Source of the DNA: Dictyostelium discoideum
Taxonomy: Eukaryota
Reading direction: 5' to 3'
Length of the DNA stretch: 64,000 nucleotides
Assembly (NCBI GenBank): GCA_000004695.1
Contig: CM000150.2
Location: forward strand, 32,001 to 96,000
Both the position numbers and the translations under genes were made by a program. How positions within the stretch are numbered: position 1 is the first letter of the stretch; the number at the start of each line of letters is the position of its first letter. Of the stretch, positions 12,813-44,900 are shown piece after piece. The notes below the pieces were generated by a model, which was not told the DNA's origin, ran no database searches, and worked only from the letters and a program-made list of their open reading frames with translations.

Positions 12813-13654
12813 TTAAACACCGTCCAATAGCTCGTTAGTGGATATAATTCTTTCGTGGAACGTTTTAATGTGCGGGTGTTTCCGCGCCAATGACGGCTAG
12901 CTGGTGGTCGCTTTTTGTAATAACGAACAAGATTGAACAGAGATATCATCATTTGCGATCAACTTAAATAAATAGTCGACAGTCTGGGGAGTAGTGGGCA
13001 TTTCTGGATCGATAAGGTAAGCGTGACGATCATTTTAAATGGTTTCGCCTAAGCCCTTAACTTTACGTGCAACCATCTCAGTAAATTGCTCTGTGGTTAT
13101 TACACCCGCTGTGAGGTCTTGTTTACAGTTAGCGTACCATTGATCTAATTTTTGATTTGGTGTTTGTTTCATGATTGATACTCACTAATGGCTGATAGTA
13201 TTTAATGGGATGCGTGTTTCTTCAGACGACGCTGTAATACCGAATAGCCTTTGTTGAACCGTTCAGCATATAAATTTGACAAGCCGTTATACTGTATGAT
13301 GCGCCGCCATCCATCCGATGCTTACTGCTCAAATGAGGCTGCTGAACGACACAGTACCTTGAATGCCGGCATTAGATTCGATCACCTCATTGCTGGTTTC
13401 AAATGACACTGGCGCACGTCCGACGACCAGACCATCTTTAAGATTGTCGTAAGCTGTTGCGTACTGTAGCAAAGCACGTTTGAAATATAAATTGATTACC
13501 ACAACTAGAACGTTAGGGTTACGTATAGTATACTCAATTAACCAGCGAGTTTTCCCAGTTTGACGTGAGCCACTGAAGCCAATTGTAAACAACTCTCGTA
13601 AATGACATGCCTTAGTACCGCCAAGATTATTAGCAGCGCTACGCATTATTTAAA
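12813..13654 (-). other. Compositionally foreign (visibly higher-GC) prokaryote/phage-like segment, left half; continues at 18479 beyond the DIRS insertion
   Basis: Base composition differs sharply from the flanking AT-rich DNA. Contains a P-loop ORF and a further small ORF (MKQTPNQKLDQWYANCKQDLTAGVITTEQFTEMVARKVKGLGETI) on the minus strand. Confidence 0.5.
13329..13646 (-). CDS. P-loop NTPase fragment resembling the N-terminal ATPase of phage large-terminase subunits (Walker A GSRQTGKT; compare T4 gp17 SRQLGKT)
   Basis: 105-aa ORF; ATG at 13646 abuts the DIRS insertion point. Assignment is motif-based only. Confidence 0.4.
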   Translation of the reverse strand: MRSAANNLGGTKACHLRELFTIGFSGSRQTGKTRWLIEYTIRNPNVLVVVINLYFKRALLQYATAYDNLKDGLVVGRAPVSFETSNEVIESNAGIQGTVSFSSLI

Positions 13655-14104
13655 AATTTAATTTATTAAATTATATTTTATATTAAATATATATATATAT
13701 ATTATGAATAACATTTATTTATTTGAATTTCCCAAATATTTAAGATAATTTTTTAGAATGTTCTAGAACATTCGAAGAATAAAAAAAAATTTTCGAAAGA
13801 AAAGTAAAAATTTCGAACCGGCACAATGACGCGATCATTGTGTAAGGTCGAAAAACTGAAAAATTCCGAACCGACACTATGCACAAAGTTGTGAAGGGTC
13901 GAAAACTCTTATTTTTTTGAGTTTTGCGAAATTTTTAAGAAAATAAAAACGTATAAATAGTGGCACAAAAAACTAAAACAATTTGATTTATGGAATTCCG
14001 ACTAAGGGCGGGTGGGATGGGACTAATATATATATATATATTTAATATAAAATATAATTTAATAAATTAAATTTTTAATTTATATTATCATATATATATA
14101 TATA

Positions 14105-17100
14105 TTATGAAATTTGGACGACAGTATTTAAGAAACCACCAGATTTTTCACCAATGATTCTTTTATCGTAGAAGGTATCTACAGTATCATTTGATTTCCA
14201 ACGACCCATCTTCTTAACAACGTGGAACGGAACGTTATTGGACAACAGCAGAGAAGCCATAGCGGAACGGGTAGAGTGAGATTTGAACTTGACAATATCA
14301 ATACCTGACTTTGAGAGTGTTGATAGTACAATTGAGTTAATATCATTAACTTGGAGCGGTTCACCCTCATTCTTAATAAAGACAGAGTCACCCGAATGGG
14401 GCTTTCTTCTTCCTTTAGAGGCTCTAAGGTATGTTGCAAGGTGGCGAACAGGGCATACTTGAGAGTTTGTATCATCTAACGATGTTAATTCTAATATTGA
14501 AACAACACCACTTCTTTGTTCTTTAGCATTAATAACTGGACCTTTAATTGAGTCAGTAGTAATAATGAGACCTTTGAACGACCACTTCACCAAGTCTGAT
14601 GATCTTGCTAAACCAAACATTTTACAGAGTACAAGTGTCTTGTTTAATAGCGCAGTGTATGTGTACTTAGGGATAACTTTGATAGTAGATAAGTGCTTGA
14701 ATACTTGATTTGCATCCCATATCTCTTTATACTTTGCAGATGAAGGACGCAACTTGTGAATACCAGTCATAATTCTTGTGATGAATGGATCATTAACAAT
14801 ATCAGTTTGATTCCTGAGGAGTAACAACTGATTCAACATAGAGCGATGACCGTTAATTGTTGAGAAGGCTAACGGAGGTTTGTGTTTGAATAGATGTGTA
14901 AGATAATCCATGAAAACAACTAAGGTAATGTTTGCTGGATTCAAAGAGTTCAAAGTACAGAAATTGCGGAATCTTGTATAACTGGAGCTATATACTTTGA
15001 GAGTTGAAGGTTCCCAAGACTTCATTAACAGCTCAGCTGTTTTTGTATTTGCTGTACGAGCGAAGGACATTACATGAGATTGGAAAGTTGAATAATCCCC
15101 AGTTTCCAACGTTGTTGAATCTGGATTGGTATCGACTCTACTGATTGTTTGGTCAATACTTCTTGGAATGTTCCCAGTACTTGAGGGAACATGTGACGAT
15201 GATGACGAGGAACTTGTGCTTGAATCATCGGATACCAAGTTGCTGATCTCCAGATTGGGAAGATCAGTATTATAGAAACCTTCTTCGAACTGGATGAGTT
15301 CATCTTCTCCAGGATAGAAGGCAAAAGAATGGGTGGTGGGAAGGCCAGACATTGCTTCCATTGACTCCAGTCGAGGTGGAGTGCATTCATTCTGATTGTT
15401 GAGTAGTTGTTCGTTTGATGGTTCAGGTGAGATGCGAACAGATCCATCTGTATTTGACCGAATTGAAGTTGGATGCGATTGAACACTTCTTTCTTCAGTT
15501 GCCAGTTGTAACTCTTGATTACTCTGGTGGATGATTTGTGATTCATCTCTGAAAGACGGCTGAGGTGGTCGGCTTTTACATTGAAGAATCCTGGAATATG
15601 CTCTCCAATCAAGTTCACTTTCTTTTTGAGGCATTGTTTCCAAAGTTGTTCGAACAGAACTGAGAGATCTTGTATTTGACCACCCTGGCGATTGATGTAA
15701 GAGAGAGTAGTAGTGTTGTCGGTTTGAATCTTCAGCTTGCAGTTGTTTAGTTTCCGACATAGCGCTTGATAGGCCATAAGCAGCGCGAGCATTTCTCGAC
15801 GATTTGACGACATGTTTGATTGAGTTGTTGACCACTGGAATGACCAAGTTTTGATTACCTTGTTTCCTTTCTTGAGTGTGGCACCTGCACCTGATTCCGA
15901 GGCATCGGTTGTAAGAACATAGTCGTAACTTGGAAACAGACTGATTTCTTTTCCATTCCATTGGTTTAGAACTGTTAACCAATGCGAAATCTCTGACTTG
16001 ACCTCTTGGGGAATGGGGAATGATTGATCCCAATCTCCTTTGGCTATAGTCAGACACTGAGAGTGAAACTTGTTTGTTCGACGAGTGTAAAGTCTGAATG
16101 GGATGACTGCATCTTTCAGTGCGATTAACTTTCCTTTTAAACCAGCAAGCTTTCTTGGGGAGCAACAATCTAGTTTTAAAAAGTTTCTTATTTCTTTGAT
16201 GACACTTTTCTTCTTTTCTTTGGGAACAAGAAGCTTCATTGATACCGAATCGATTTGTAATCCGAGAAACGTAATTGATTGAGTTGGTTCGAGAACACTC
16301 TTTTCTAGATTTAACTTGAAGCCTAGTTTGACAAGTAAGTCCATTGTCTTTTTGAGGTTGGATAAACATTCTTCTTTTGTTGAACCGACGATTAATAGAT
16401 CGTCCAAGTAAGCGATGACGGATACGTTGATATCTCTCAACATTCGAAGTACAGGTCTTAACAGCATTGTAAATATACGAGGAGCTGTCGATAACCCGAA
16501 CGGCATTGTTTTCCAACGGTAGTGCGAACCTTTCCACACGAAGCGGAATAAGTCTCTGTATTGTGGATCTACTAACACGTGGAGGTAGGCTTTCTTGATA
16601 TCGAGTTTTACCATGTAATAACCTTGTTTGACCATTGACGGTAGATTCTTGATTCCTTCCATCTTGAATGATTGGTTGTTGATGTAAGTGTTTAACCTTT
16701 TTAGATCGAGAACTGGACGATGTAGATTCGTTCCAGGTTTTGGAACCGTAAACACGTTGGAGTAAAAAACGCGCTTTGAATAACGGTTTGGAAGTACTTG
16801 TTCGATAGCATCGTCTAATAACAAGTCTTGTACTTCCTTTGTGATGCAATCTGATTTCGGACCCTCTGGAATTGAAATCGGAATTGGGTTTAGCATCGGC
16901 TTGAAATTTGGAAGCAGATGGACTTTTAATCCATTTACGACCTCTTGACAAAAGTTTGGAAGACCCAATTCTTTCCAAACTTGTTTGTGGTGGAACAGAC
17001 GTCCACCTACTGGTAAGTTTACTTCTTGTTCTTCTGAAAACGGTTGTTGGTACCGTTTGCAGACTTGGTATTGTTGCTACCTGATGCAACACTACTTGGT

Positions 17101-17182
17101 GATCCATTGAAGTTGTTAGATCGGCCATTACTCCCACTACTGGATTTACTATTACTACTGTTTCCTGTAGTGTTATTACCAC
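14105..17182 (-). CDS. DIRS-1 long overlapping frame (ORF2), 1025 aa; C-terminal ~300 aa (about 14105-15060) is the tyrosine-recombinase domain; the N-terminal part overlaps ORF3 in another frame
   Basis: Open in all intact copies (also 20425-23520, 42542-45619). The true translation start is uncertain. Confidence 0.7.
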   Translation of the reverse strand: MVITLQETVVIVNPVVGVMADLTTSMDHQVVLHQVATIPSLQTVPTTVFRRTRSKLTSRWTSVPPQTSLERIGSSKLLSRGRKWIKSPSASKFQADAKPNSDFNSRGSEIRLHHKGSTRLVIRRCYRTSTSKPLFKARFLLQRVYGSKTWNESTSSSSRSKKVKHLHQQPIIQDGRNQESTVNGQTRLLHGKTRYQESLPPRVSRSTIQRLIPLRVERFALPLENNAVRVIDSSSYIYNAVKTCTSNVERYQRIRHRLLGRSINRRFNKRRMFIQPQKDNGLTCQTRLQVKSRKECSRTNSINYVSRITNRFGINEASCSQRKEEKCHQRNKKLFKTRLLLPKKACWFKRKVNRTERCSHPIQTLHSSNKQVSLSVSDYSQRRLGSIIPHSPRGQVRDFALVNSSKPMEWKRNQSVSKLRLCSYNRCLGIRCRCHTQERKQGNQNLVIPVVNNSIKHVVKSSRNARAAYGLSSAMSETKQLQAEDSNRQHYYSLLHQSPGWSNTRSLSSVRTTLETMPQKESELDWRAYSRILQCKSRPPQPSFRDESQIIHQSNQELQLATEERSVQSHPTSIRSNTDGSVRISPEPSNEQLLNNQNECTPPRLESMEAMSGLPTTHSFAFYPGEDELIQFEEGFYNTDLPNLEISNLVSDDSSTSSSSSSSHVPSSTGNIPRSIDQTISRVDTNPDSTTLETGDYSTFQSHVMSFARTANTKTAELLMKSWEPSTLKVYSSSYTRFRNFCTLNSLNPANITLVVFMDYLTHLFKHKPPLAFSTINGHRSMLNQLLLLRNQTDIVNDPFITRIMTGIHKLRPSSAKYKEIWDANQVFKHLSTIKVIPKYTYTALLNKTLVLCKMFGLARSSDLVKWSFKGLIITTDSIKGPVINAKEQRSGVVSILELTSLDDTNSQVCPVRHLATYLRASKGRRKPHSGDSVFIKNEGEPLQVNDINSIVLSTLSKSGIDIVKFKSHSTRSAMASLLLSNNVPFHVVKKMGRWKSNDTVDTFYDKRIIGEKSGGFLNTVVQIS
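15070..16968 (-). CDS. DIRS-1 ORF3 (reverse transcriptase / RNase H / C-terminal MT-like region), 632 aa, intact
   Basis: Motifs YLDDLLIVGS (RT), TDASESGAGATL and NVKADHLSR (RNase H). Confidence 0.85.
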   Translation of the reverse strand: MGLPNFCQEVVNGLKVHLLPNFKPMLNPIPISIPEGPKSDCITKEVQDLLLDDAIEQVLPNRYSKRVFYSNVFTVPKPGTNLHRPVLDLKRLNTYINNQSFKMEGIKNLPSMVKQGYYMVKLDIKKAYLHVLVDPQYRDLFRFVWKGSHYRWKTMPFGLSTAPRIFTMLLRPVLRMLRDINVSVIAYLDDLLIVGSTKEECLSNLKKTMDLLVKLGFKLNLEKSVLEPTQSITFLGLQIDSVSMKLLVPKEKKKSVIKEIRNFLKLDCCSPRKLAGLKGKLIALKDAVIPFRLYTRRTNKFHSQCLTIAKGDWDQSFPIPQEVKSEISHWLTVLNQWNGKEISLFPSYDYVLTTDASESGAGATLKKGNKVIKTWSFQWSTTQSNMSSNRREMLALLMAYQALCRKLNNCKLKIQTDNTTTLSYINRQGGQIQDLSVLFEQLWKQCLKKKVNLIGEHIPGFFNVKADHLSRLSEMNHKSSTRVIKSYNWQLKKEVFNRIQLQFGQIQMDLFASHLNHQTNNYSTIRMNALHLDWSQWKQCLAFPPPILLPSILEKMNSSSSKKVSIILIFPIWRSATWYPMIQAQVPRHHRHMFPQVLGTFQEVLTKQSVESIPIQIQQRWKLGIIQLSNLM

Positions 17183-18026
17183 TTGAGTTAACTAATTTCT
17201 TGACATTGGACTTGGAATGATAATTCAATTTTAACAATGATTGTTTAGCTTCGTTGTTCTTTCTGATTGACTTGGCTAGCTTTCTTACACGTTCAGTTTC
17301 AGTTTCATCAAACATCTTTGGTGTATCCTTGATCTTAATTGGTAAGAGTACTTCAGAACCATAGATTTCTTTAGCGATGTTGTTACGACGGACACGACTA
17401 AGCGATGCTTGAGCATTAACGGCTAAAACGATTGCACTCTGAGTTAAGTAACTAATAAGTTCTACATCGACATTAGAGCTATCAGATGATAACATACTTG
17501 ACATGAGAAGCAAAGGTTTTAAGCTATCGTTGATTCGCTTTTCAACAATCAACAAGTCAGTATCATTGTTCTTGACGTTGGATGATACAGTAATACCTTC
17601 AGGTGTACCGAATGGAGCGACATTCACTTGGAAGTTAGATGGAAAGTTGAATACTTTATTCAATTCGGATATTTCATCTTTCTTGAGGATACATTCTTCT
17701 TCGACGAGTAAACCTTGATTGTTAACCATATGTTTGTACTGACCAAGTAAGGTATCGGATAATTGATAATCGGTTGGAACATCGACATTGTTACTTGATT
17801 CATCTTCACTTTGTTCATTCTCGGTGTCAGAGTCATCATGAGAAGGTTGGCTACGTGAATTGGTATTAGATGAGAACATAGGTTCTTTCATGAATCTTGT
17901 AAAGGCTAAGGAAAGGTTGTTGATTTGATCCTCCATTGATTTCATTCTTAAATCAAAGGATTCAGCGCTATTAGAGACAGAGGTACTACTACTAGAGGCA
18001 TCATTATTATTAACAGTGGTAGACAT
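17019..18026 (-). CDS. DIRS-1 ORF1 (Gag-like), 335 aa, intact
   Basis: Open ORF; same protein in copies at 28063-29070 and 45456-46463. Confidence 0.85.
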   Translation of the reverse strand: MSTTVNNNDASSSSTSVSNSAESFDLRMKSMEDQINNLSLAFTRFMKEPMFSSNTNSRSQPSHDDSDTENEQSEDESSNNVDVPTDYQLSDTLLGQYKHMVNNQGLLVEEECILKKDEISELNKVFNFPSNFQVNVAPFGTPEGITVSSNVKNNDTDLLIVEKRINDSLKPLLLMSSMLSSDSSNVDVELISYLTQSAIVLAVNAQASLSRVRRNNIAKEIYGSEVLLPIKIKDTPKMFDETETERVRKLAKSIRKNNEAKQSLLKLNYHSKSNVKKLVNSSGNNTTGNSSNSKSSSGSNGRSNNFNGSPSSVASGSNNTKSANGTNNRFQKNKK

Positions 18027-18478
18027 ATTTTATTGTTGATATCTAAAATTATAATATGAGAAAAATAATAATATTAAAAATTAATAAAGAGAAATAATTA
18101 TTTGTATAAAATTTGTGTGTGTGTGTATCTTAAATATATATAGGAGGAATTCCCAAATAAAATAAATCAAATTGTTTTAGTTTTTTGTGCCACTATTTAT
18201 ACGTTTTTATTTTCTTAAAAATTTCGCAAAACTCAAAAAAATAAGAGTTTTCGACCCTTCACAACTTTGTGCATAGTGTCGGTTCGGAATTTTTCAGTTT
18301 TTCGACCTTACACAATGATCGCGTCATTGTGCCGGTTCGAAATTTTTACTTTTCTTTCGAAAATTTTTTTTTATTCTTCGAATGTTCTAGAACATTCTAA
18401 AAAATTATCTTAAATATTTGGGAAATTCAAATAAATAAATGTTATTCATAATATATATATATATATGATAATATAAAT

Positions 18479-19567
18479 AATCGCAATACTTTTCTCAAGT
18501 TCTTGAACTATCGCATCATAATCAATGGTAGAAGTCATGATTTTTTACCTCATTTATTTAAGTGGTTGTATGAACCCACAGGGTTATAGTCCTCATAAAC
18601 AGGAAGTAGTAGACCAGGTGCATTAGGCATTATTATTAATACACGCTGACCACGCACATAAGGTTGGTTGTTAACATATTTAAAATCAGTTGCCACATAG
18701 CCTTTTGGAATTTCCATGTTAAACTAATCCTCTTAATAGGTGACCGATGGCGGGGTTGACCGTCAGACTTCTACAACACCCAACCACGTAATATCGGAAG
18801 TGCTTCTGTCATTGTTCTTTTATTTTTAGATGCTACGCGGTTGATTGTGGTTTACTTACACCAAAGTGTAAGCGTCGGTTATTTGCTGGCATACTTTCAG
18901 ACACGTCCCAAGTCTCCAATTCACCGCCTTCCGCTATTAAGGGTGCCTAATGACGGACATTCATCTCAAAATAAAACCAGGAGGGGTAAAACCATCCTAT
19001 ATACTAATCTTACGGACGTGGTGATATCGAATACCACATTCTGTAATTTAGATCATGATCGGTGTTATTTATTTAATGTTTTGGCTATTGCTATAACCGA
19101 CCAAGCTACTGTGTTTCCACAGAAATGACTCGAACCATCGACCCACAGCGTGTATATAGTGAGCTGGTGGTTTAACCTCCCAAGGGCGGTGTTCGACTAT
19201 TCGTCAAACGATGACAAGCTTTTTAATTTAATTAAACTACCACACCATCTACAATTTCGATTTTGGTAGAAGAGTTAGATTCAGTTAACGCGTAATCAAT
19301 GTTGGCTTCGAAATCCAGAATCTCTTTTTCCTACTGCTTGATTACTTTGCTGATCTCCAGCGGATACAGCACGCCTGGCTGATAACGTTCGATAACTGGA
19401 TTAACGAACGCAGCAATGGAAGCTTCATCGGCTTTCTTAGTACCGTTGAATGCTTCGGTGCGCGCGATATTTTCACGCTGGTCAAAATTGGAGTTACCGT
19501 TGTGACGAGATATCGATTCGTAGTTCGCTTTCAAAGCTTTGACAATATCGCGTTTCTCACCTAATGC
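18479..19567 (-). other. Continuation of the prokaryote/phage-like segment; small ORFs with SD-like GAGG spacing
   Basis: Minus-strand ORFs 19331-19534, 18550-18716 (MEIPKGYVATDFKYVNNQPYVRGQRV...) and 18479-18538 (MTSTIDYDAIVQELEKSIAI). aaataaatGAGGtaaaaaatcATG sits 7 nt before the last of these. Confidence 0.45.
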
Positions 19568-19579
19568 ATTATGTGCATG

Positions 19580-19974
19580 TGCAGCAAAGAAAAATCCACA
19601 TTTAAAGCAAATTTAAAGCAAAGTTGATTTAAATTGGATTTAAATTGAATTTAAAGCCGGGTTTAAAAAATTCATTTTCAAGGTAATTTTTAAGATAATT
19701 TTAAGATATTTAAAAATGCTTTAAAATTTATTTTAAAATAATTTTAAAGAGGATTTAAAGTTGATTTAAAGTAGATTTAAAGTGAATTAAAATTTCCTTT
19801 AAATATAAATTTAAGGTTTTTAATAAAAAACATCTAATTTTAGATCAAAAAAATGGGGATAAAATATTCTATCATTTTTAAATTATCATCAAAGCAATCA
19901 AATGGTGAAATGGTTGATGAGACTACCCTTTGATTGATGAGACTACCCTTTTGGTAAATTTTCAAAAAATTTAA
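19580..19974 (+). mobile_element. MITE-like element, copy ii (5' ~400 bp), truncated by DIRS copy D5
   Basis: ..CAGCAAAGAAAAATCCACATTTAAAGCAAATTTAAAGCAAAGTTGATTTAAATT... is collinear with 12128-12560 and with the reverse complement of 56180-56605. Confidence 0.5.
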
Positions 19975-29513: not shown

Positions 29514-30255
29514 AAATAAATTAAATTTTTAATTTATATTATCATATATATATATATATTATGAAATTTGGACAGTATTTAAGAAACCACCAGATTTTTC
29601 ACCAATGATTCTTTTATCGTAGAAGGTATCTACAGTATCGTTTGATTTCCAACGACCCATCTTCTTGACAACGTGGAACGGAACGTTATTGGACAACAGC
29701 AGAGAAGCCATAGCGGAACGGGTAGAGTGAGATTTGAACTTGACAATATCAATACCTGACTTTGAGAGTGTTGATAGTACAATTGAATTAATATCATTAA
29801 CTTGGAGCGGTTCACCCTCATTCTTAATAAAGACAGAGTCACCCGAATGGGGCTTTCTTCTTCCTTTAGAGGCTCTAAGGTATGTTGCAAGGTGGCGAAC
29901 AGGGCATACTTGAGAGTTTGTATCATCTAACGAAGTTAATTCTAAGATTGAAACAACACCACTTCTTTGTTCTTTAGCATTAATAACTGGACCTTTGATT
30001 GAGTCAATAGTAATAATGAGACCTTTGAACGACCACTTCACCAAGTCTGATGATCTTGCTAAACCAAACATTTTACAGAGTACAAGTGTCTTGTTTAATA
30101 ACGCAGTGTATGTGTACTTAGGGATAACTTTGATAGTAGATAAGTGCTTGAATACTTGGTTTGCATCCCATATCTCTTTATACTTTGCTGATGAAGGACG
30201 CAACTTGTGAATACCAGTCATAATTCTTGTAATGAATGGATCATTAACAATATCA
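29514..30255 (-). mobile_element. DIRS-1 fragment D7: 3' ~740 bp (recombinase C-terminus 29559-30221), truncated at 30255 by a family-B terminus
   Basis: ORF 29559-30221 matches the ORF2 C-terminus. The expected continuation ..aacaatatcagtttgattcc is replaced by cacagcggcgaaaatc. Confidence 0.8.
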
Positions 30256-30505
30256 CACAGCGGCGAAAATCAACACTTTAAAGCACCTTTAAATCCAAGT
30301 ACTCTTTTTAATATATATTAATAAGTATACTTAATAAGTAATACTTAATAAGTACACTTAATAAGTATACTTAATAAATATACTTTATAAGTACTACTTA
30401 ATAAGTACACTTATTAAGTATACTTATTAAGTATACTTATAAAGTATTACTTTTTAAGTATACTTATTAATATATATTAATAATTAATTATTTTTATTTT
30501 TTTTT
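30256..30505 (-). mobile_element. Family-B right-end fragment (inverted): terminus CACAGCGGCGAAAATCAACACTTTAAAGCACC plus TAAGTATAC-type repeats
   Basis: Reverse complement of 40808-40976. Confidence 0.55.
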
Positions 30506-31270
30506 TTAAAAAATGTTTTGTGTGGGAATTGAACCCGTGACCTCCCTTCCTGAAGTTCCGTGGAAATGTTTTATGTGGGAATTTAACCATGACCTCCCTT
30601 CTGGAAGTTCCGGGGGAAAAAATGTTTTATATGGGAATCGAACCCTTGACCTCTACCTTATTAATTTATCGTATTTCTATGTAAGCTATAGACACTTTGA
30701 TAATTTTCATTGAAAATAGCTATAATATGAATGTTAAAAAACTTCCAAGTAAAAAAAAAAAGAATGTGAAATAACTCTGTGGTTGTTGTATTATTGATAT
30801 TGCTGTATGTAATTTCTATTGCTGTTGCTGTATTAGTGATGTTGTATTATTATTGTTGCTTTATTATTGCTGTTGTTGTACTATTGATGTTGCTGTTTTA
30901 TTGATGTTGCAGTCCTAACTGTTGTTGTGTTGTTATTATGTTGTAATTATTGTTGTTGTCGCACCTGTTGTGTTCAGCTACAGTGTTGTTATTGTGTTGT
31001 TATTGTGTTGTAATTGATTTTGAAGTTGTTTTGTTATTGTGTTGTTATTGTGTTTGTTGTGTTGTTATTGTGTTGTTATTGTGTTTGTTGTGTTGTTATT
31101 GTGTTGTTATTGTGTTTTTTGTGTTGTTATTGTGTTGATTTCATTTTTCAATTGATTTTGCAGTTGTTGTTGTACCTGTTATTGTTTTATTGTTTTATGG
31201 TTGCACCTGTTGTGGTTTTTATTATTGTTGCTAAAATTGTTGGTGTGTGTTGTAGTTGTTTGTTCTGTGT
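30506..31270. repeat. Left inverted arm of family-A copy 2: three tRNA-3'-half-like ~50-bp units (30513-30660), a GT-rich region, then a (TGTTGTTATTGTG)n array ending ..GTTCTGTG
   Basis: Inverted copy at 35830-36400. Units contain GGGAATCGAACCCTTGACCTC, the complement of a T-arm-like motif. Confidence 0.6.
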
Positions 31271-31289
31271 ATATATTCATAAAATTTTC

Positions 31290-31334
<45 letters not shown>

Positions 31335-31590
31335 ACTTTTTTCAATTTTTTCATTTTTTATTTTTTTTTTGCCGAAAAGGGAAAACATGCATGTTTAATT
31401 TTTAATTTTATTTTTTTTAATTTAATTTTATTTAATTCTTTTTTTTTTTTTGTATTTTTTTTTTTTTTTCATTTTTTTATTTCACTTTTTTATTTTTATT
31501 TTTTCATTTTTCATTTTTTTTTTTTCGCTTTTTTATTTCACTTTTTTATTTTTATTTTTTTAATTTATTTATTTTAAAAACATATTTGAA

Positions 31591-34041
31591 ATGGATTTAA
31601 AAAAAGTGGATTGCATTATTTGTAAACAACCAATTAAATGTTTCAAAGATATAGTTATACATTTTATTAAACATAATGATCGTTGCCCAATTTGTTTAAG
31701 CAAATATACATCATTTTCAAAAATGTATGCTTTAACAGGTCATTATTATTCACAAGGTTGTAATAATAAAAAAAATAATATAAAGGGTGAACAAAAATTG
31801 CAAGATGAATTTTATCAGAGGTTATCAAAGATTACAGGCGATAATATTATATACCCAACCAACTTATCCGATGACCCTTTCAATCATATGAGCCAACAAA
31901 ATTTAAATGAAAATTTTATAATTGATGAGAATAATAATAATTTAGAAAATGAAAATGAAAATGAAAATAATTCATTTGAGGATATAGGAAATATATTAAA
32001 CCAAAATGGACAAGAAAATGATGATATTGAAATTTTGAAAGAAAAAGAAAATGGAAATTTAGGAAAAGAATTAAATAATTATGAAATTGGATTTTTAAAG
32101 TTGGGTTTAGAAAATGCTAAATCGTTAAAATTTATGCAACAAATTTTGGATTTTTTTAAAAACAATATAAATGCAATTAATGAAATTAGATATACAACAA
32201 AGTATATGGATTCTATATTTTTAGCAAATTTACCTATCGATGGTCACTTTTTGAGTTACAAATATTATGAAGAGTCAATTTTTTATTATGAAATTTGTTC
32301 AGTTGTAAAATTATTAATTGAAAAAAAAAATTTTATAGAATATTTAGATTTCTCAAAAGACTATGAGCAAGGTATTTATAAAAATTATAAATCTGGAGAA
32401 CAATTCAAAAAAATAAAAAATTCAATTTCAGATAAATTTATTTTATTAAGAATATTTAGTGACGGAATGAGTCATCAAGGTAGATCAGATTATACTATAA
32501 TGGTGGATTTTGAAAATTATAATGGTCCATTTTTTAAAAATAACAAAATTGTTTTATTTATTGTTCCAAAAGAATGGTTTCACAATATACATCAAACAAT
32601 TAAAAAATTATTTTCAGCGCAATTTAATAATAAATTAATAATTAAAGATAATAATGGAAATGATTATGAAATTATACCATATGGATTAACAATGGATATA
32701 CCAGAATTTAGATCATCTTGTAGGATTAACCATTATAATTGCAATGAGTTCTCATGTCATACATGTGATAAACTAAGAGGTGTCGATTATTTATTAAAAG
32801 AAGGAAATTATAGAAATCAAAAAGACATTATTGACTTTCACAATTCAAAACCAAATAAACAAGATTTTTTAAATCCTCAAAATAAAATTTTAAAATTAGA
32901 AACAGAACAAAAAATGAAAAAAATCGGCATTACAGATTATGACAGATCTTGGGTAGAAAATTTAAAAATAAATTATTTGTACTTACAACCTGATATTTTA
33001 CACAACATATTATTGGGTATTGTACAATGGGTTTTAAATTATATTTTCAAAAAATATAAGGATCAAATTACAATTTTTATAAAAAAATTAAAAGAAGCTA
33101 AAATCATTCCAGATCATTTACCACCATCAGAATCTTTATTTGGTGTAAAAACAAGAAAAGGTAGAGAGAATAGAAGCATATTATATTATATTTTATTTTT
33201 TACTAAACCAAATGTATCAAATGATGATTTCTTATTATTAGAAGAAATGGTTCAGATTACTTTTTTATTATATCAAGATTCTTTCGACGAAGATGATTTG
33301 GATAAAATAAATTATTTAGTTAAAAATTTTAATAAAAAAATATTTATGATAATACCAAATGAACCAATCAACTTTCACCTTTTATTACATTATCCTTTAT
33401 ATATAAAAAATTGGGGTGCACCAAAATTTACATCAGCAGAGAGATTTGAAGCACAATTTAGTAAAATTAAAGACCTTTTGACAAACAATACAAACAACCA
33501 AGATCAACATAAATTTGAAAGAGTAACAAAAATATTAATGGCAACATTTTTAGATAATTTTAACAATCTAAAAGAAAAAGATGTTGACAATAATGATTTA
33601 ATTTTAGGGCAAATAATTAAAAAAAATGAAAATATTTATTTAAAAAATAATATTTTATCAGACATTAACTTGCATTACAAAAACATTGAAAATATTCAAT
33701 TTCATAAATCAATTAAAAATTTAAAAGAAATATATAATGTTGGTGATGGAATTGAAGTTGCCTCAGAAAATTCATTAACTGGACGATGGAGTGCAATAAT
33801 TATTGCTATTTGTTTAATAGAATTAAAAAATAAAAAAAGTGCACATTCTATTTATATACAATACTTTGATAAAGATACAGGTGATCAAAATAATAAGTAC
33901 CACTTTTTAAGAAAAAGCTTTTCAAGTATAGTATTTGATAACATAGTAAACACATTAATACCAATACAAATCGATTCGTCCAACTATCTTATAATTTATA
34001 AGTGCCATGACCAATTTTCAATAAGTAAAAAAAAAAAATGA
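31591..34041 (+). CDS. Family-A transposase, 816 aa, open: N-terminal C2H2/CPxC zinc-finger region then CACTA TnpD-like blocks
   Basis: MDLKKVDCIICKQPIKCFKDIVIHFIKHNDRCPICL..., then the motif set listed for 7890-10049. Confidence 0.75.
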   Translation: MDLKKVDCIICKQPIKCFKDIVIHFIKHNDRCPICLSKYTSFSKMYALTGHYYSQGCNNKKNNIKGEQKLQDEFYQRLSKITGDNIIYPTNLSDDPFNHMSQQNLNENFIIDENNNNLENENENENNSFEDIGNILNQNGQENDDIEILKEKENGNLGKELNNYEIGFLKLGLENAKSLKFMQQILDFFKNNINAINEIRYTTKYMDSIFLANLPIDGHFLSYKYYEESIFYYEICSVVKLLIEKKNFIEYLDFSKDYEQGIYKNYKSGEQFKKIKNSISDKFILLRIFSDGMSHQGRSDYTIMVDFENYNGPFFKNNKIVLFIVPKEWFHNIHQTIKKLFSAQFNNKLIIKDNNGNDYEIIPYGLTMDIPEFRSSCRINHYNCNEFSCHTCDKLRGVDYLLKEGNYRNQKDIIDFHNSKPNKQDFLNPQNKILKLETEQKMKKIGITDYDRSWVENLKINYLYLQPDILHNILLGIVQWVLNYIFKKYKDQITIFIKKLKEAKIIPDHLPPSESLFGVKTRKGRENRSILYYILFFTKPNVSNDDFLLLEEMVQITFLLYQDSFDEDDLDKINYLVKNFNKKIFMIIPNEPINFHLLLHYPLYIKNWGAPKFTSAERFEAQFSKIKDLLTNNTNNQDQHKFERVTKILMATFLDNFNNLKEKDVDNNDLILGQIIKKNENIYLKNNILSDINLHYKNIENIQFHKSIKNLKEIYNVGDGIEVASENSLTGRWSAIIIAICLIELKNKKSAHSIYIQYFDKDTGDQNNKYHFLRKSFSSIVFDNIVNTLIPIQIDSSNYLIIYKCHDQFSISKKKK

Positions 34042-34188
34042 AAAAAATTCGTTGAACTTATTTACATAACTTTTACATTTTTACGTAACTTTTTCTTTTT
34101 TTTTTTTTTTCTTTTTTTCCAATTTTCTTTTTTTTCGGTTGGAAATTATAGGATTTTAAAAAAAAATTAAAAAAATATTATAAAAAAA

Positions 34189-34476
34189 ATGACTCACAAT
34201 AATTCTGCATCATTTGAAACACCAAATAGAAGTGGTAATTATGTAAATAGATCATCTTTAACTTCACCAACATCACCAATAACACCAATACCATCTCTTA
34301 TTTTAAATCAAACTGATACCTCCATAGGTCCACAACGTACTGTTAGAAGACTACAAAGACCTCAAAGACCAAATGCAAGTCATCCACCAACAACAAATAT
34401 TGTAGAAAAAATATTGGTGTATGAAACATTGCACAGAAATTGTGTTTCTCAATACTATGCAACTGGTAAGGTAAGA

Positions 34477-34543
<67 letters not shown>

Positions 34544-35191
34544 AAGAGACTAATTAAATTAAATAAACAAAAATAATACATAAGATTTCCTCTCGTTTTA
34601 TTAGGACCTGTATATTAAATGCTGGCGGTACAAATTCAAATGAAAATAAAGTTGTTTTATCCAAATTGGTTAAATGGGTCAACAATAAACGTGGTAACAC
34701 ACGTATTAAAGCCCTAAATACCCTTAGACTTTTAGTTAGAAATAAAGTAGAACAGTTCAGCGAGTTGCTCTCTCAGGTTCCAGCATTAATGGAGTATGAA
34801 TCGGTATGTAAAATAAAAAAAAAAAATAAAAATAAAAAAATAAAAAAAAAAAAAAAATAAAAAAAAAAAAAAAAATAAATTATTAATAATTTGTTTTTTT
34901 AATTTTTTAATTATTATTTAGATAACTCCTTTTGATTTGGCCACTCTTATTATCGATACAGTTACCTTAGAAGCTTTTGACTCCGATCCTTTTGTAAAGT
35001 TCTTAGTGTCTCAATGCTTTACAATTGAAGAAAAAGAATGGTACAGCGGTTCCAAACCTCTTATTTCTTTAATAGTTAAAGCATTGCGTGGTGTTTCTCA
35101 AAAGTTCATTGACTCTCCTGATGAACTTACTTACACTGAAAAGGTTGCTTTTGAATTCACTTCAATACCTCTTTATGCTCCACTAAATTAA
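34189..35191 (+). CDS. Family-A second gene, copy 2: exons about 34189-34470, ~34585/34605-34803, ~34921-35191
   Basis: Identical organisation to 10193-11179; intron 1 carries a 59-nt poly(A) tract. Confidence 0.5.
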
Positions 35192-35340
35192 ATCGTTTAA
35201 ATAAAAAAAATTAATATGATTTCACATACTCAACTTTAATTTTTTCTTTTTTTTTTAAATCTTTATTTAATTTTTATTTTAAATTTTTATTTTTAATTTT
35301 TATTTTTAAAGTGATATTATTAATATATCTTATTAAGTTA

Positions 35341-35760
35341 ACTTTATAATATAAATTTATAAATGCACTTTTAAATTGAATTTTATAAATATAATTAATA
35401 AGAATACTTAATAATTGTACTTATAAAGAGTACATTATAATTATAATTAGTAATTACGCTTAATAAGTATACTTAATAATAATACTTAATAAGTATACTT
35501 ATTAAGTATACTTATTAATTATACTTAATAATTATACTTAATAAGTATACTTATTAAGTATACTTATTAATTATACTTAATAATTATACTTAATAAGTAT
35601 ACTAATTAATTATACTTAATAATTATACTTAATAATTATACTTAGTAAGTATACTTAATAAGTATACTTAATAAGTGTATTTAATAAGTATACTTAATAA
35701 GTATACTTTATAAGTATATTTAATAAGTATACTTAAAAAGTATACTTTATAATTATACTT
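35341..35760. repeat. TACTTAATAAGTATA-type subterminal tandem array (family-A copy 2)
   Basis: Same array as 11341-11760. Confidence 0.75.
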
Positions 35761-35829
35761 ATTAAGTACACTTTATAATAGTACTATTTACATTCCTACT
35801 TTAAAGATGCTTTTAAGTATTTTTTTTCG

Positions 35830-36400
35830 CCCCTGTGCAACACAACAAACAAATAACAACACAACAAACAAATAACACAATAACAACACAACAAACACAA
35901 TAACAACACAACAAACACAATAACAACACAATAACAAAACAACTTCAAAATAAATTACAACACAATAACAACACAATAACAACACTGTAGCCGAACACAA
36001 CAGGTACGACAACAACAATAATTACAACATAATAACAACACAACAACAGGTAGGACTGCAACATCAATAAAACAGCAACATCAATAGTACAACAACAGCA
36101 ATAATAAAGCAACAATAATAATACAACATCAATAATACAGCAACAGCAATAGAAATTACATAGCAATATCAATAATACAACAACCACAGAGTTATTTCAC
36201 ATTCTTTTTTTTTTTTACTTGGAAGTTTTTTAACATTCATATTATAGCTATTTCCAATGAAAATTATCAAAGTGTTTATAGCTTACATGGTAATGCGATA
36301 AATTAATAAGGTAGAGGTCAAGGGTTCGATTCCCATATAAAACATTTCCACGGAACTTCAGGAAGGGAGGTCACGGTTCAATTCCCACATAAAACATAAA
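35830..36400. repeat. Right inverted arm of family-A copy 2 (AC-rich array plus tRNA-half-like units)
   Basis: Reverse complement of about 30513-31140. Confidence 0.6.
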
Positions 36401-40690: not shown

Positions 40691-40976
40691 TTTAAATAAT
40701 TGCTTTTAAATTAATTTTTAAGTGACTTTTTTATAGGACTTTAAATCCACTTTTAATTTAATTTAAAGTTGCTTTAAAGGTGTAATTTTCATCGCTGTGA
40801 CTTATAAAGTATATTTATTAAGTATACTTATTAATTGTACTTATTAAGTATTATTTATTAAGTATACTTATTAATTGTACTTATTAAGTATTACTTATTA
40901 AGTATACTTATTAATATATATTAAAAAGAGTACTTGGATTTAAAGGTGCTTTAAAGTGTTGATTTTCGCCGCTGTG

Positions 40977-41926
40977 GTTGATCACAGTGCAGATACGTTT
41001 CGATTTTAAAATTCACATCTACCCTTGCACCTTTATTGTGTAGCAATTTGACCAGATCTACCTTATTTTTTTTCACTGCCCAATTCAACAACTTCTCACC
41101 GTTATCATTAATCGCAACATCTAAGTCTGGGAGTTTACTCTTGGAAGAAAGGTAAGTTGTTAGAAGAAGGTTTAACAAATCATTACTCGGCCATGCGAAG
41201 CCAAACCCAGAGAGGTTTTTTTTTCACTATCTCGTTAAGCATTTCTGTAATAACGTAATCGCTATTACCCTCACCACGCAGTTCGATTATCATGGCAATT
41301 TATTCTGGGTTAAGTTGTTTCTTTTGGCTTTTACTAAATGCTGATCTACCAAGAGATAATTGTAACTTGGCGCTACACGAATTTGAGCAGGTTGGTGGCG
41401 TACCGGTTTCCATTCTAGCTAAATAGTTCTTAGCGAGGATGCGTTTGAGCGCTCCACATAATGGACAGTAGAAGTCGAAGTATACACCGCCTTTCTCTTT
41501 CAAAAATCTGCGATAACGTTCACTCTTAATTCGATTCTCTTCTACTGTAAGAATCTGATATCGTCATTGGTCCTATCTTCATCCATGTGATCTACTTGTT
41601 CATTGGGCGATAATAATCTACCCAACTTCACCGACATTAAGTATTATGCGTAAGTCCGAAACGATCATGGCTGCTGTTGAAGCGTTTTCTTTTATCAGAA
41701 CACTCGATTAGATATCCGAGAAGCCATTGTTCTTTAAAACGGTAACTGCAACTCTAAACGCATTTTGACTCCTTAATGGTCTATCAAGGTAGTCATGTAG
41801 GACTAAGAATATCTGCCACCGAAACCAATCATTCTACCAACTGAACTACACGAGCAAATATGGAATGAGACCTAGGAGTCGAACCCAGGACCGCCGGATT
41901 TGAATCCTATGCTCAACCAAGTGAGC
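40977..41926 (-). other. Higher-GC island between the family-B terminus and a DIRS ITR: degenerate ORF with zinc-ribbon-like (41300-41503) and ankyrin-repeat (40977-41178) pieces in different frames, plus two tRNA-like sequences (about 41770-41845 and 41851-41925)
   Basis: ..YCPLCGALKRIL..CSNSCS..; ..DVAINDNGEKLLNWAVKKNKVDLVKLLHNKGARVDVN.. fits the ankyrin consensus; T-arm-like CTGGGTTCGACTCCTAG. Confidence 0.45.
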
Positions 41927-44900
41927 TCATATTTAAAAATTTAATTTATTAAATTATATTTGAATTTCCCAAATATTTAAGATAATTTTTTAGAATGTTC
42001 TAGAACATTCGAAGAATAAAAAATTTTCGAAAGAAAAGTAAAAATTTCGAACCGGCACAATGACGCGATCATTGCGCAAGGTCGAAAAATTAAAAATTTA
42101 ATTTATTAAATTATATTTTATATTAAATATATATATATATATTATGAATAACATTTATTTATTTGAATTTCCCAAATATTTAAGATAATTTTTTAGAATG
42201 TTCTAGAACATTCGAAGAATAAAAAATTTTCGAAAGAAAAGTAAAAATTTCGAACCGGCACAATGACGCGATAATTGCGCAAGGTCGAAAAACTGAAAAA
42301 TTCCGAACCGACACTATGCACAAATTTGTGAAGGGTCGAAAACTCTTATTTTTTTGAGTTTTGCGAAATTTTTAAGAAAATAAAAACGTATAAATAGTGG
42401 CACTAAAAACTAAAACAATTTGATTTATGGAATTCCGACTAAGGGCGGGTGGGATGGGACTAATATATATATATATATTTAATATAAAATATAATTTAAT
42501 AAATTAAATTTTTAATTTATATTATCATATATATATATATATTATGAAATTTGAACGACAGTATTTAAGAAACCACCAGATTTTTCACCAATGATTCTTT
42601 TATCGTAGAAGGTATCTACAGTATCGTTTGATTTCCAACGACCCATCTTCTTGACAACGTGGAACGGAACGTTATTTGACAACAGCAGAGAAGCCATAGC
42701 GGAACGGGTAGAGTGTGATTTGAACTTGACAATATCAATGCCTGACTTTGAGAGTGTTGATAATACAATTGAATTAATATCATTAACTTGGAGCGGTTCA
42801 CCCTCATTCTTAATAAAGACAGAGTCACCCGAATGGGGCTTTCTTCTTCCTTTAGAGGCTCTAAGGTATGTTGCAATGTGGCGAACAGGGCATACTTGAG
42901 AGTTTGTATCATCTAACGATGTTAATTCTAAGATTGAAACAACACCACTTCTTTGTTCTTTAGCATTAATAACTGGACCTTTGATTGAGTCAGGAGTAAT
43001 AATGAGACCCTTGAACGACCACTTCACCAAGTCTGATGATCTTGCTAAACCAAACATTTTACAGAGTACAAGTGTCTTGTTTAATAGCGCAGTGTATGTG
43101 TACTTGGGGATGACTTTGATAGTAGATAAGTGCTTGAATACTTGATTTGCATCCCATATCTCTTTATACTTTGCAGATGAAGGACGCAACTTGTGAATAC
43201 CAGTCATAATTCTTGTAATGAATGGATCATTAACAATATCAGTTTGATTCCTAAGGAGTAACAACTGATTCAACATAGATCGATGACCGTTAATTGTTGA
43301 GAAAGCTAACGGAGGTTTGTGTTTGAATAGATGTGTAAGATAATCTATGAAAACAACTAAGGTAATGTTTGCTGGATTCAAAGAGTTCAAAGTACAGAAA
43401 TTGCGGAATCTTGTATAACTGGAGCTATATACTTTGAGAGTTGAAGGTTCCCAAGACTTCATTAACAGCTCAGCTGTTTTTGTATTTGTTGTACGAGCAA
43501 AGGACATTACATGAGATTGGAAAGTTGAATAATCCCCAGCTTCCAACGTTGTTGAATCTGGATTGGTATCGACTCTACTGATTGTTTGGTCAATACTTCT
43601 TGGAATGTTCCCAGTACTTGAGGAAACATGTGACGATGATGACGAGGAACTTGTGCTTGAATCATCGGATACCAAGTTGCTGATCTCCAGATTGGGAAGA
43701 TCAGTATTATAGAAACCTTCTTCGAACTGGATGAGTTCATCTTCTCCAGGATAGAAGGCAAAAGAATGGGTGGTGGGAAGGCTAGACATTGCTTCCATTG
43801 ACTCCAATCGAGGTGGAGTGCATTCATTCTTATTGTTGAGTAGTTGTTCGTTTGATGGTTGAGGTGAGATGCGAACAGATCCATCTGTATTTGACCGAAT
43901 TGAAGTTGGATGCGATTGAACACTTCCTTCTTCAGTTGCCAGTTGTAACTCTTGATTACTCTGGTCGATGATTTGTGATTCATCTCTGAAAGACGACTGA
44001 GGTGGTCGGCTTTTACATTGAAGAATCCTGGAATATGCTCTCCAATTAAGTTTACTTTCTTCTTGAGGCATTGTTTCCAAAGTTGTTCGAACAGAACTGA
44101 GAGATCTTGTATTTGACCACCCTGGCGATTGATATAAGAGAGAGTGGTAGTGTTGTCGGTTTGAATCTTCAGCTTGCAGTTGTTCAGTTTCCGACATAGC
44201 GCTTGATAGGCCATCAGCAGCGCGAGCATTTCTCGACGATTTGACGACATGTTTGATTGAGTTGTTGACCACTGGAATGACCAAGTTTTGATTACCTTGT
44301 TTCCTTTCTTGAGAGTGGCACCTGCACCTGATTCCGAGGCATCGGTTGTAAGAACATAGTCGTAACTTGGAAACAGACTGATTTCTTTTCCATTCCATTG
44401 GTTTAGAACTGTTAACCAATGTGAAATCTCTGACTTGACGTCTTGAGGAATGGGGAATGATTGATCCCAATCTCCATTGGCTAGAGTCAGACAGTGAGAG
44501 TGAAACTTGTTTGTTCGACGAGTGTAAAGTCTGAAAGGGATGACTGCATCTTTCAGTGCGATTAGCTTTCCTTTTAAACCAGCAAGCTTTCTTGGGGAGC
44601 AAAAATCTAGTTTTAAAAAGTTTCTTATTTCTTTGATGACACTTTTCTTCTTTTCTTTGGGAACAAGAAGCTTCATTGATACCGAATCGATTTGTAATCC
44701 GAGAAACGTAATTGATTGAGTTGGTTCGAGAACACTCTTTTCTAGGTTTAACTTGAAACCTAGTTTGACAAGTAAGTCCATTGTCTTTTTGAGGTTGGAT
44801 AAACATTCTTCTTTTGTTGAACCTACGATTAATAGATCGTCCAAGTAAGCGATGACGGATACGTTGATATCTCTCAACATTCGAAGTACAGGTCTTAACA

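Follow-up and report, generated by a model that had tools for sequence, protein, structure and literature searches.

The question addressed here is how, and from where, an island of GC-rich DNA (positions 40977-41930) came to lie among the transposons of an amoeba centromere. The island is part of a 64-kb stretch of chromosome 1 of Dictyostelium discoideum AX4, hereafter referred to as the window, which belongs to a DIRS-1-rich centromeric cluster and contains AX4 gene models DDB_G0267208 to DDB_G0267264. According to Glöckner and Heidel, this centromere region was manually reconstructed from shotgun reads and consists "mostly but not entirely" of transposons (PMC2665215). An initial annotation had interpreted the island as a single disrupted zinc-ribbon/ankyrin open reading frame (ORF) with two adjacent tRNA-like sequences, and had suggested a giant-virus or endosymbiont origin and tRNA-targeted integration. 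The analysis presented here indicated that the island is, with high probability, tailed-phage DNA that reached the D. discoideum germ line and is now a relic without function. The DNA originated from a phage, was resident in the chromosome before DIRS-1 and DNA transposons inserted, was duplicated and has lost all of its reading frames, and nothing suggests a present-day function of the relic.

Within 40977-41930, GC content was 0.36-0.45, as compared with 0.17-0.21 in the left flank and 0.13-0.30 in the DIRS inverted terminal repeat (ITR) at the right, in agreement with the GC-rich stretch of ~0.95 kb that had been noted at the outset. Self-comparison of the window yielded only three unique segments with a raised GC content (12818-13645, 0.43; 18481-19581, 0.41; 40977-41952, 0.39), and the island itself has no second copy inside the window. 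All of its coding pieces and tRNA relics lie on the minus strand. Both borders, 40976/40977 and 41930/41931, are exact termini of host transposons. The left one is the terminal inverted repeat (TIR) of a DNA transposon designated family B; this repeat is 94% identical, in reverse, to the left TIR of a complete 5.6-kb copy at 30254-35839, which was also found at a different locus of an independent assembly. On the right, a dozen ITR copies in the window match the DIRS-1 ITR fragment at 95-98% identity, and the terminus of this fragment, ATTTAAAAATTTAATTT, recurs at the DIRS-1/phage junction 13650/13651. The position between a family-B terminus and a DIRS ITR had thus been recognised correctly, as had the left edge; the right edge, first placed at 41926, is 4 nt further, at 41930.

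Coding pieces in three minus-strand frames (CPLCG...CSNSCS, VDHMDEDRTNDD and GEKLLNWAVKKNKVDLVKLLHNKGARVDVN) had been reported for the island, and profile and protein matches placed them far beyond chance. The first two belong to a gene at 41235-41763 that, judged from its family and context, was a phage HNH homing endonuclease with predicted cleavage and homing activity, and that now appears dead. Its reconstructed protein matched the HNH endonuclease profile phrog_14913 (E=3e-19, profile positions 9-136 of 149). The HNH motif (VDHMDEDRTNDD) and the Cys4 zinc site (CPLC...CSNSC) fall on invariant columns of the family alignment (D62, H63, D65 and N70; C107, C110, C133 and C137). The Cys4 site that had been read as a zinc ribbon is therefore real but belongs to a homing endonuclease, not to a zinc-ribbon/ankyrin gene. 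A search of 5.8 billion proteins returned a single close homologue (P0001, 199 aa, 64% identity, E=1.4e-59), which bears a C-terminal helix-turn-helix (HTH). The Pfam family HNH_3 (PF13392, cutoff 24.8 bits) matched the pseudogene weakly, at 13.5 bits, and the intact homologue at 30 bits.

P0001 is encoded on a metagenomic Logan contig, SRR28047936_26955 (L001; 10.5 kb, GC 0.47). Positions 3056-3690 of this contig aligned in blastn with window positions 41850-41234 at 70% identity over 642 bp, with similarity beginning 86 bp upstream of the HNH start codon. In the nucleotide alignment, the amoeba gene differed from that of the phage contig by indels of +1, -9, -4, -10, +3 and -3 nt, of which +1, -4 and -10 shift the frame; moreover, it has a premature TAA where L001 has CAA, and tblastn high-scoring segment pairs of the gene were spread over three frames. 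These observations identified the gene as a pseudogene: frameshifts and a stop break its reading frame, and from ~41234 other DNA takes the place of its 3' end.

The upstream similarity covers two further elements, a leader and the stump of a tRNA gene. The leader, which L001 has in common with the island, contains the Shine-Dalgarno sequence AAGGAG at 41774->41769, 5 nt ahead of the ATG at 41763. Before it lie the two tRNA-like sequences of the initial annotation. Both are real and degenerate, but the T-arm CTGGGTTCGACTCCTAG and D-arm GCTCACTTGGTTGAGC that had been quoted for them are both parts of one, tRNA #1, read from 41930 to 41861. Its T-arm can be written as CTGGG-TTCGACT-CCTAG and its 3' acceptor strand as GTCTCAT-T-CCA, with the CCA encoded at 41863-41861. 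The relic has a shortened anticodon loop and only part of the 5' acceptor strand, and it ends exactly at the DIRS-1 terminus. Alignment with phage tRNA-Lys and tRNA-Trp genes gave 83-85% identity over ~57 nt. As had been noted, no clean cloverleaf can be folded: unless its thresholds were relaxed, ARAGORN found no tRNA in the window, and Rfam found none at gathering score and only a weak T-arm match. At 80% thresholds ARAGORN called 41861-41930 as tRNA-??? with a 2-nt anticodon and a malformed anticodon loop, while thresholds below 80% returned noise only.

The second tRNA-like sequence follows after a gap of 5 nt and comprises the first 26 nt of a tRNA-Asn-like gene (41830-41855), the remainder of which is replaced by the HNH cassette. 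In L001 as in the island, the HNH gene is preceded by a tRNA-Asn gene truncated to its first ~26 nt (GTAGTTCAGTYGGTAGAA...), and in L001 a weak Rfam tRNA match covers that region (3051-3136). Erwinia phage pEa_SNUABM_48 has an intact tRNA-Asn gene and no HNH gene. The second tRNA-like sequence is thus what remains of a phage tRNA-Asn gene that was interrupted by insertion of the endonuclease cassette.

An association with tRNA genes is a habit of this HNH family in phages. In 15 of 19 IMG/VR loci, tRNA genes occurred within 3 kb of the HNH ORF, about ten of them with one within ~60 bp on the same strand, and in one locus the HNH gene lies inside a 20-tRNA array. Serratia phage vB_SmaS-Totoro has the order HNH, tRNA-Ser and a homologue of gene B (see below), with the HNH gene ending 4 bp before tRNA-Ser. 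Since the family is habitually found between or inside phage tRNA genes, a tRNA beside the presumed zinc-ribbon ORF reflects the gene order of the phage itself, and the island preserves a portion of a phage tRNA cluster. Integration targeted to tRNA genes, as initially proposed, does not account for relics that are collinear with phage contig L001, lie 5 nt apart and encode CCA. Host tRNA genes do not encode CCA. Neither TRE nor DGLT-A elements lie beside the relics, whose neighbours are a DNA-transposon TIR and a DIRS-1 ITR. No host gene with introns and no ordinary host tRNA gene, the two outcomes that had been named beforehand as counter-evidence, was encountered.

All informative homologues of the island were from tailed phages (Caudoviricetes), and mostly from 272-294 kb jumbo phages of Enterobacterales. 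L001 is 80-83% identical in nucleotide sequence to Erwinia phage pEa_SNUABM_48 (294 kb) and Salmonella phage SA002 (288 kb), and remoter members of the HNH family occur in the jumbo phages Serratia phage Totoro, Aeromonas phage Aszh-1 and the RaK2 group. Homology thus places the donor within or near the ~270-295 kb Enterobacterales jumbo-phage clade that includes SA002, Erwinia phages pEa_SNUABM_37/48 and L001. A search of IMG/VR with the pseudogene translation for a closer donor returned no match. With the family alignment as query, the best IMG/VR match was 43% identical over part of the protein and the best full-length metagenome match 45%, so that L001 was still the closest.

The third coding piece has a different history. 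The ankyrin repeat recognised in it is genuine: among 1.84 billion representative proteins, HMMER found 1469 ankyrin-repeat proteins that match the piece at E<=1e-3, the best of them with 10-24 matched repeats. These best matches were scattered in taxonomy, over molluscs, sponges, insects and metagenomes. Within an open frame of 67 codons (41178->40977), which is truncated at 40976/40977 by the transposon terminus, the piece contains a single full canonical repeat at ~41106->41011 (GEKLLNWAVKKNKVDLVKLLHNKGARVDVN), rather than an array of at least two repeats in an intact gene. Pfam Ank_4 scored 21.5 bits, below cutoff, in the first reconstruction, and 22.8 bits (cutoff 22.7) in a query that joined the ankyrin piece to island 18481-19581. 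With a GC content of 0.38 and a GC content at third codon positions (GC3) of 0.38, as against a GC3 of 0.12-0.14 for host transposon ORFs in the window, its composition is not host-like.

The initial view of one disrupted zinc-ribbon/ankyrin ORF stood as far as the disruption is concerned, but not as a single ORF, as the ankyrin repeat lies beyond a breakpoint at ~41234/41235. There, the window departs in the alignment from L001 and from two D. discoideum paralogues described below (L092 and L094), all three of which have an authentic HNH 3' end; the 258 bp of 40977-41234 are missing from L092 and L094. In tblastn against phages the piece had no match, and no ankyrin gene was found near any relative of the HNH gene. 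It is a separate, truncated fragment that a rearrangement joined to the HNH gene.

Two other readings of this piece were considered and rejected. That it is the natural downstream neighbour of the HNH gene was ruled out by the same alignment with L094, L092 and L001. That it is the N-terminal half of gene A, a phage gene in the second island, was suggested by an open frame across a join of 40977 to 19581 on the minus strand and by a collinear MAFFT alignment. It was ruled out because phrog_1491 matches only the part from 18481-19581, no phage match reaches the ankyrin part, and other D. discoideum copies bear the true N-terminus of gene A (MATKISITRALATVKS...).

The two other GC-rich segments of the window hold further parts of the phage segment (Table 1). 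Gene A of the island at 18481-19581 matched 526 phage records, the best at 45.5% identity in Agricanvirus. The remaining codons of gene B continue on the far side of a complete DIRS-1 element: tblastn placed codons 2-16 at 18532-18488 and codons 28-112 at 13625-13377. Since a complete DIRS-1 splits gene B, the phage DNA was in the chromosome before DIRS-1. The window thus holds at least three pieces that correspond to one neighbourhood of such phage genomes, and its three islands are fragments of a single family of phage-derived segments.

Table 1. Coordinates of the phage-derived islands in the window, of their component features and of the host elements that border or interrupt them (an arrow gives the reading direction).
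Feature	Position	Strand	Remarks
Right TIR of host DNA transposon (family B)	40800..40976	+	Ends ...TTTTCGCCGCTGTG; left border of island 40977-41930
Non-host-like fragment joined to HNH gene at breakpoint	40977..41234	-	258 bp; open frame with one ankyrin repeat
Predicted phage HNH homing-endonuclease pseudogene	41235..41763	-	HNH motif, Cys4 zinc site, start of C-terminal HTH
HNH cassette leader with bacterial ribosome-binding site	41764..41829	-	TGGCAGAT..CCTACATGACTACCTTGAT..AAGGAGTCAnnATG, common to L001
tRNA-Asn-like gene, 5' 26 nt (acceptor 5' strand and D-arm)	41830..41855	-	GCTCGTGTAGTTCAGTTGGTAGAATG; alignment to L001
Relic phage-type tRNA gene (tRNA #1)	41861..41930	-	D-arm, T-arm and 3' acceptor strand recognisable
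DIRS-1 ITR fragment	41931..42098	+	Terminus ATTTAAAAATTTAATTT; right border of island 40977-41930
Second relic island of same phage segment	18481..19581	-	tblastn, tblastx, alignments
Gene A, C-terminal half (phrog_1491)	19573->19238	-	One in-frame stop; phrog_1491 E=2.4e-19
tRNA relics	~19150->19000	-	Second island
Conserved non-coding element	18972->18818	-	Second island
55-aa ORF	18717->18550	-	Second island
Gene B, first 20 codons	18538->18478	-	Second island; abuts DIRS-1
Full-length DIRS-1 retrotransposon inside phage gene B	13651..18477	-	Clean junction sequences
Third relic island: rest of gene B (phrog_2586) with stop codons, and downstream sequence	12818..13650	-	phrog_2586 E=8e-10

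The second island also retains a non-coding element of ~135-155 nt, copies of which were located in the window (18818-18972, minus strand), in L001 (3891-4021) and in sequences L004 (7718-7895) and L007 (1487-1618). In the alignment its core was ~80% identical to L001, pEa_SNUABM_48 and SA002 (76-78% over ~100 nt in blastn), and its flanking proteins are only 35-50% identical. A blastn search of the phage database with the element returned SA002 as sole match, and Rfam returned none. In the clade of SA002, pEa_SNUABM_48 and L001, the only phage clade that yielded it, the element is located downstream of tRNA-Asn. It has a closing helix TCTGAGATG...CATCTCAGA, and RNAalifold predicted 26 pairs, three of them with compensatory changes. 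Two sites bear hairpin insertions specific to one lineage, of 47 nt in the Erwinia phage and of 22 nt in the copy from the amoeba. The element is a candidate for a previously undescribed structured phage RNA.

Two AX4 gene models of hypothetical proteins lie in the third island. DDB_G0267234 (105 aa, 13329-13646, minus strand) is a fragment of the gene B pseudogene, and DDB_G0267232 (45 aa, 13035-13172, minus strand) covers unassigned sequence immediately downstream. DDB_G0267284 (61 aa, 2 aa different), a paralogous fragment at another place on chromosome 1, is probably a piece of a phage-derived island as well. A protein homologue search with the gene B reconstruction missed DDB_G0267234, its exact fragment in the collection; negative results of this type of search for short fragments are therefore unreliable.

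An independent assembly, GCA_054883475.1, probably from the long-read project of PMC12745789, contained four further copies (L005, L092, L093 and L094, with P0191-P0193 for L092-L094). The copies are 1-9% diverged. The L005 copy of island 12818-13650 matches it over 751 bases with 98.8% identity. The halves of gene B directly adjoin each other in L094 and represent the empty site of the DIRS-1 insertion (window 13651-18477 versus L094 11975-11983). Residence of the phage DNA in the amoeba chromosome is therefore documented by exact transposon termini at the island borders, by a DIRS-1 element inside gene B of the sister islands, and by an empty site in a paralogue.

Outside the window, L092 and L094 preserve parts of the segment that the window lacks. 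Over its last 28 codons, their authentic HNH 3' end is 86% identical to L001. Between the HNH relic and gene A, L092 has a tRNA-Ser(UGA) of bacterial or phage type with a canonical cloverleaf (9780-9869); in L094 the anticodon of this class-II tRNA is mutated to UAA (9780-9869; Rfam tRNA, 50.7 bits), and the window lacks this copy. When these copies are combined, the ancestral order can be reconstructed as HNH 3' end, class-II tRNA, full gene A, tRNA relics, non-coding element, small ORF and gene B. The island at 40977-41930 overlaps L092 and L094 in 94-118 nt of the 3' part of the HNH gene, at ~91% identity, and island 18481-19581 is 98.7% identical to L092. By these identities the two islands may descend from different paralogous copies.

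Other features of the copies concern their interruptions. The L092 contig ends exactly at the gene B/DIRS-1 junction, which suggests that DIRS-1 occupies the same gene B site in that strain. On L005, gene B meets the terminus of another transposon at a point that corresponds to window 13568. An element of ~630 bp that resembles a miniature inverted-repeat transposable element (MITE; CACAGTGAAAGAAAAACC...GGATTTTTCTTTGCTG; L094 10256-10890), with termini related to those of family-B/C DNA transposons, interrupts gene A at about codon 96-100 in L094, L092 and the window. The window keeps only its right part (19582-19997), which is followed by ~21 kb of DIRS-1 and DNA-transposon copies. An internal hairpin of this MITE-like element gives spurious mir-548-like Rfam matches. 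The gene models ACTFIT_003263, ACTFIT_001947, ACTFIT_001916 and ACTFIT_012385 of GCA_054883475.1 are chimeras of phage pseudogene and transposon sequence.

Host elements near the island were also characterised. The complete family-B transposon at 30254-35839 has TIRs of ~215 bp with 13-bp tandem repeats and an 816-aa C2H2 ORF (DDB_G0267250), and a tRNA T-arm-like sequence, GGGAGGTCACGGGTTCAATTCCCACA (30513-30560), is found just inside its left TIR. Two T-arm-like motifs at 36300-36395 resembled phage tRNA relics; one of them, at 36345-36390, is family-B transposon sequence, and the second is located at ~36320-36345. A long, imperfect CAA/ACA-rich simple repeat (caacacaacaaacaaataacaa...) occupies 35840-36180, between two DNA-transposon copies. 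The region 3577-7884, which seemed semi-unique, turned out to be host transposon debris (a Harbinger-like DDE sequence and a reverse transcriptase of a long-terminal-repeat retroelement) and not phage DNA.

Among alternative explanations, the one that survived best concerns the multicopy state, which could result from capture of the phage segment as cargo by a host mobile element rather than from segmental duplication of centromeric DNA. At least five copies occur on different contigs or chromosomes, and every copy is embedded among termini of family-B/C DNA transposons, as such a capture would predict. However, both the breakpoints and the flanking elements differ from copy to copy, and no matching pair of termini surrounds the phage segment in any copy examined. 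The MITE-like insertion common to L094, L092 and the window indicates that copies were duplicated together with later insertions, as in segmental duplication. The evidence favours segmental duplication, and transposon cargo is considered unlikely.

Far less probable is the origin proposed initially, which would derive the DNA from a giant virus (nucleocytoplasmic large DNA virus, NCLDV) or an intracellular symbiont and would have it inserted at tRNA genes, with one gene that encodes both zinc ribbon and ankyrin repeat. Many NCLDV and amoeba symbionts have ankyrin repeats, and the island contains one good repeat, on a 258-bp piece for which alone such a source is conceivable. Furthermore, chlamydial endosymbionts occur in wild Dictyostelium isolates (PMC12745789). 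However, the HNH gene with its leader and tRNA-Asn fragment matched Caudoviricetes only, as did genes A and B and the non-coding element, with conserved synteny, in searches that did not include a dedicated NCLDV set. A Shine-Dalgarno sequence ahead of the ATG also counts against this origin, and the ankyrin piece lies beyond the breakpoint, is missing from the other copies and has taxonomically scattered best matches. The suspicion that the DNA is foreign was thus borne out, but its giant-virus or endosymbiont attribution was not.

Equally improbable is that retention and amplification reflect co-option, with the A and B boxes of the tRNA-like sequences binding TFIIIC and acting as RNA polymerase III (Pol III) genes or as centromere chromatin boundaries. 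In other eukaryotes, tRNA genes can act as boundary elements. In favour of such a role, L092 keeps a canonical tRNA-Ser(UGA), a related copy scores 50.7 bits in Rfam, and the GGTTCGA T-arm motif persists in the relics of the window. In addition, all examined copies that span the region keep the highly conserved candidate structured-RNA element. On the other hand, no tRNA of the window passes ARAGORN or Rfam, the anticodon in L094 is mutated, all ORFs are broken, and large deletions differ between copies. That some copies are used by the host, as Pol III/TFIIIC-bound boundary elements or as sources of small RNAs in DIRS-1 heterochromatin, is accordingly regarded as improbable to the same degree; if true, it would mean that phage RNA genes were co-opted for eukaryotic centromere biology.

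Several observations weigh against a phage relic in the D. discoideum germ line or narrow what can be said of it. The closest phage HNH protein is only 64% identical in amino acid sequence, so that the donor is placed to clade level only. Gene A, with its 526 records, is widespread among phages; the clade assignment therefore rests on synteny, the non-coding element and the HNH cassette, not on gene A alone. The GC content of the island (0.40) is barely below that of the homologous phage region (0.42) in a host genome with 22% GC, and therefore offers little compositional sign of long residence; the age of the insertion is better judged by the divergence between copies, up to 9%. The phage reading does not account for the 258-bp ankyrin piece, and the route by which the phage DNA entered the amoeba is inferred. 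The 5' part of the HNH gene with the two tRNA relics (41353-41930) was found in no other assembly examined, and the centromere of AX4 chromosome 1 was, as mentioned above, reconstructed manually (PMC2665215).

The last two of these points bear on an assembly artefact or contamination, in which phage DNA of cloning hosts or food bacteria was stitched into the chromosome 1 centromere of AX4. Differences in order and content around related islands between AX4 and GCA_054883475.1 are also compatible with this explanation. A search for the orthologous site around homologues of the neighbouring transposon ORFs (L003, L089-L091) yielded non-orthologous transposon copies without the island. Contaminating phage DNA would, however, be intact, whereas the HNH gene is heavily pseudogenised (three frameshifts and a stop). 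Moreover, the island ends on both sides exactly at termini of host transposons, a complete DIRS-1 interrupts the sister islands, diverged paralogues including an empty DIRS site are present in an independent de novo assembly, and 94-118 nt of the HNH gene of the island itself have 91%-identical paralogues there. Contamination is therefore very unlikely for the segment family as a whole and unlikely for this island, and an artefact was ranked just below co-option, as the least probable of the explanations considered so far. A mitochondrial or host-gene origin was ruled out by the GC3 of 0.38, as compared with 0.12-0.14, by the Shine-Dalgarno sequence and by homologues that occur only in phages.

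For the relic of tailed-phage DNA, the following history can be proposed. In the phage, the cassette would have been a selfish homing endonuclease living in a tRNA cluster. Enterobacterales include common food bacteria of Dictyostelium, and a phagocytic amoeba may have taken up phage DNA either free or within infected prey bacteria. End-joining would then have placed the DNA in pericentromeric heterochromatin, where genes are few and an insertion could be tolerated, and segmental duplication between repeat-rich regions would have spread the segment. As the copies show, the segment was duplicated several times once integrated, and it was cut by DIRS-1, DNA transposons and the ~630-bp MITE-like element. 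In the copy studied here, the last ~17 codons of the HNH gene were replaced, at ~41234, by 258 bp of non-host-like DNA.

As a phage relic, the island provides a concrete and datable example of DNA from phages that infect prey bacteria reaching the germ line of an amoeba. It also accounts for part of the DNA in the chromosome 1 centromere that is "unique" and not transposon-derived, and assigns AX4 models DDB_G0267234 and DDB_G0267232 to phage-derived islands, which is useful for annotation and for studies of centromere evolution. Copy-specific junctions and transposon insertions are possible markers for the evolution of centromeres among Dictyostelium strains. The material is raw and clearly dead, and consists of a selfish endonuclease, tRNA genes and anonymous phage ORFs, yet in the centromeric heterochromatin of this model phagotroph it became fixed, was duplicated and received many host transposons. 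Transfers from tailed phages to eukaryotes have rarely been documented, and the known cases involve single useful genes. A full-text literature search yielded no report of phage-derived DNA in Dictyostelium centromeres, and the paper on these centromeres is silent on it (PMC2665215).

The closest known counterparts of the cassette are the free-standing HNH homing endonucleases of phage tRNA clusters (phrog_14913/HNH_3, for example in Totoro), which belong to the same family, have the same HNH motif and Cys4 site, occupy the same place on the coding strand of the tRNA cluster and have their own ribosome-binding site. In L001 and the island alike, the cassette replaces the 3' part of a tRNA-Asn gene. 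HNH endonucleases are also found in the tRNA region of T5-like phages. In contrast to these phage enzymes, the island copy lies dead in a eukaryotic chromosome, with its C-terminal DNA-binding end replaced by unrelated DNA. For the segment as a whole, SA002, pEa_SNUABM_37/48, Agricanvirus and L001 have the order gene A, tRNA(s), non-coding element, small ORF and gene B in common with the amoeba copies. The proteins of the latter are, however, only 35-48% identical to those of the jumbo phages (64% for HNH), and in the amoeba copies HNH and tRNA-Ser are located upstream of gene A, whereas in L001 HNH is located downstream of it. In view of these differences in identity and order, the donor was a relative and not one of these phages.

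Among eukaryotes, nuclear copies of mitochondrial and plastid DNA (NUMTs and NUPTs) and Wolbachia-to-insect nuclear transfers are well-known insertions that decay neutrally. The phage-derived segments resemble them in being multi-gene, pseudogenised, interrupted by transposons, duplicated and located in gene-poor, repeat-rich chromatin, but their donor was a lytic-type tailed phage of prey bacteria rather than an organelle or resident symbiont. Known transfers from bacteria to Dictyostelium and from phages to eukaryotes, such as those of lysozymes, involve single, intact, expressed and selected genes. Like them, the island represents DNA from the prokaryotic world in the genome of a phagotroph, which fits the "you are what you eat" idea; unlike them, it is a raw fragment that comprises tRNA genes as well as a selfish endonuclease and does not appear to be used. 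Foreign DNA that decays in a eukaryotic genome is thus a known kind of element, of which this segment family is an example with an unusual donor, a jumbo tailed phage, an unusual content and an unusual, multicopy centromeric location.

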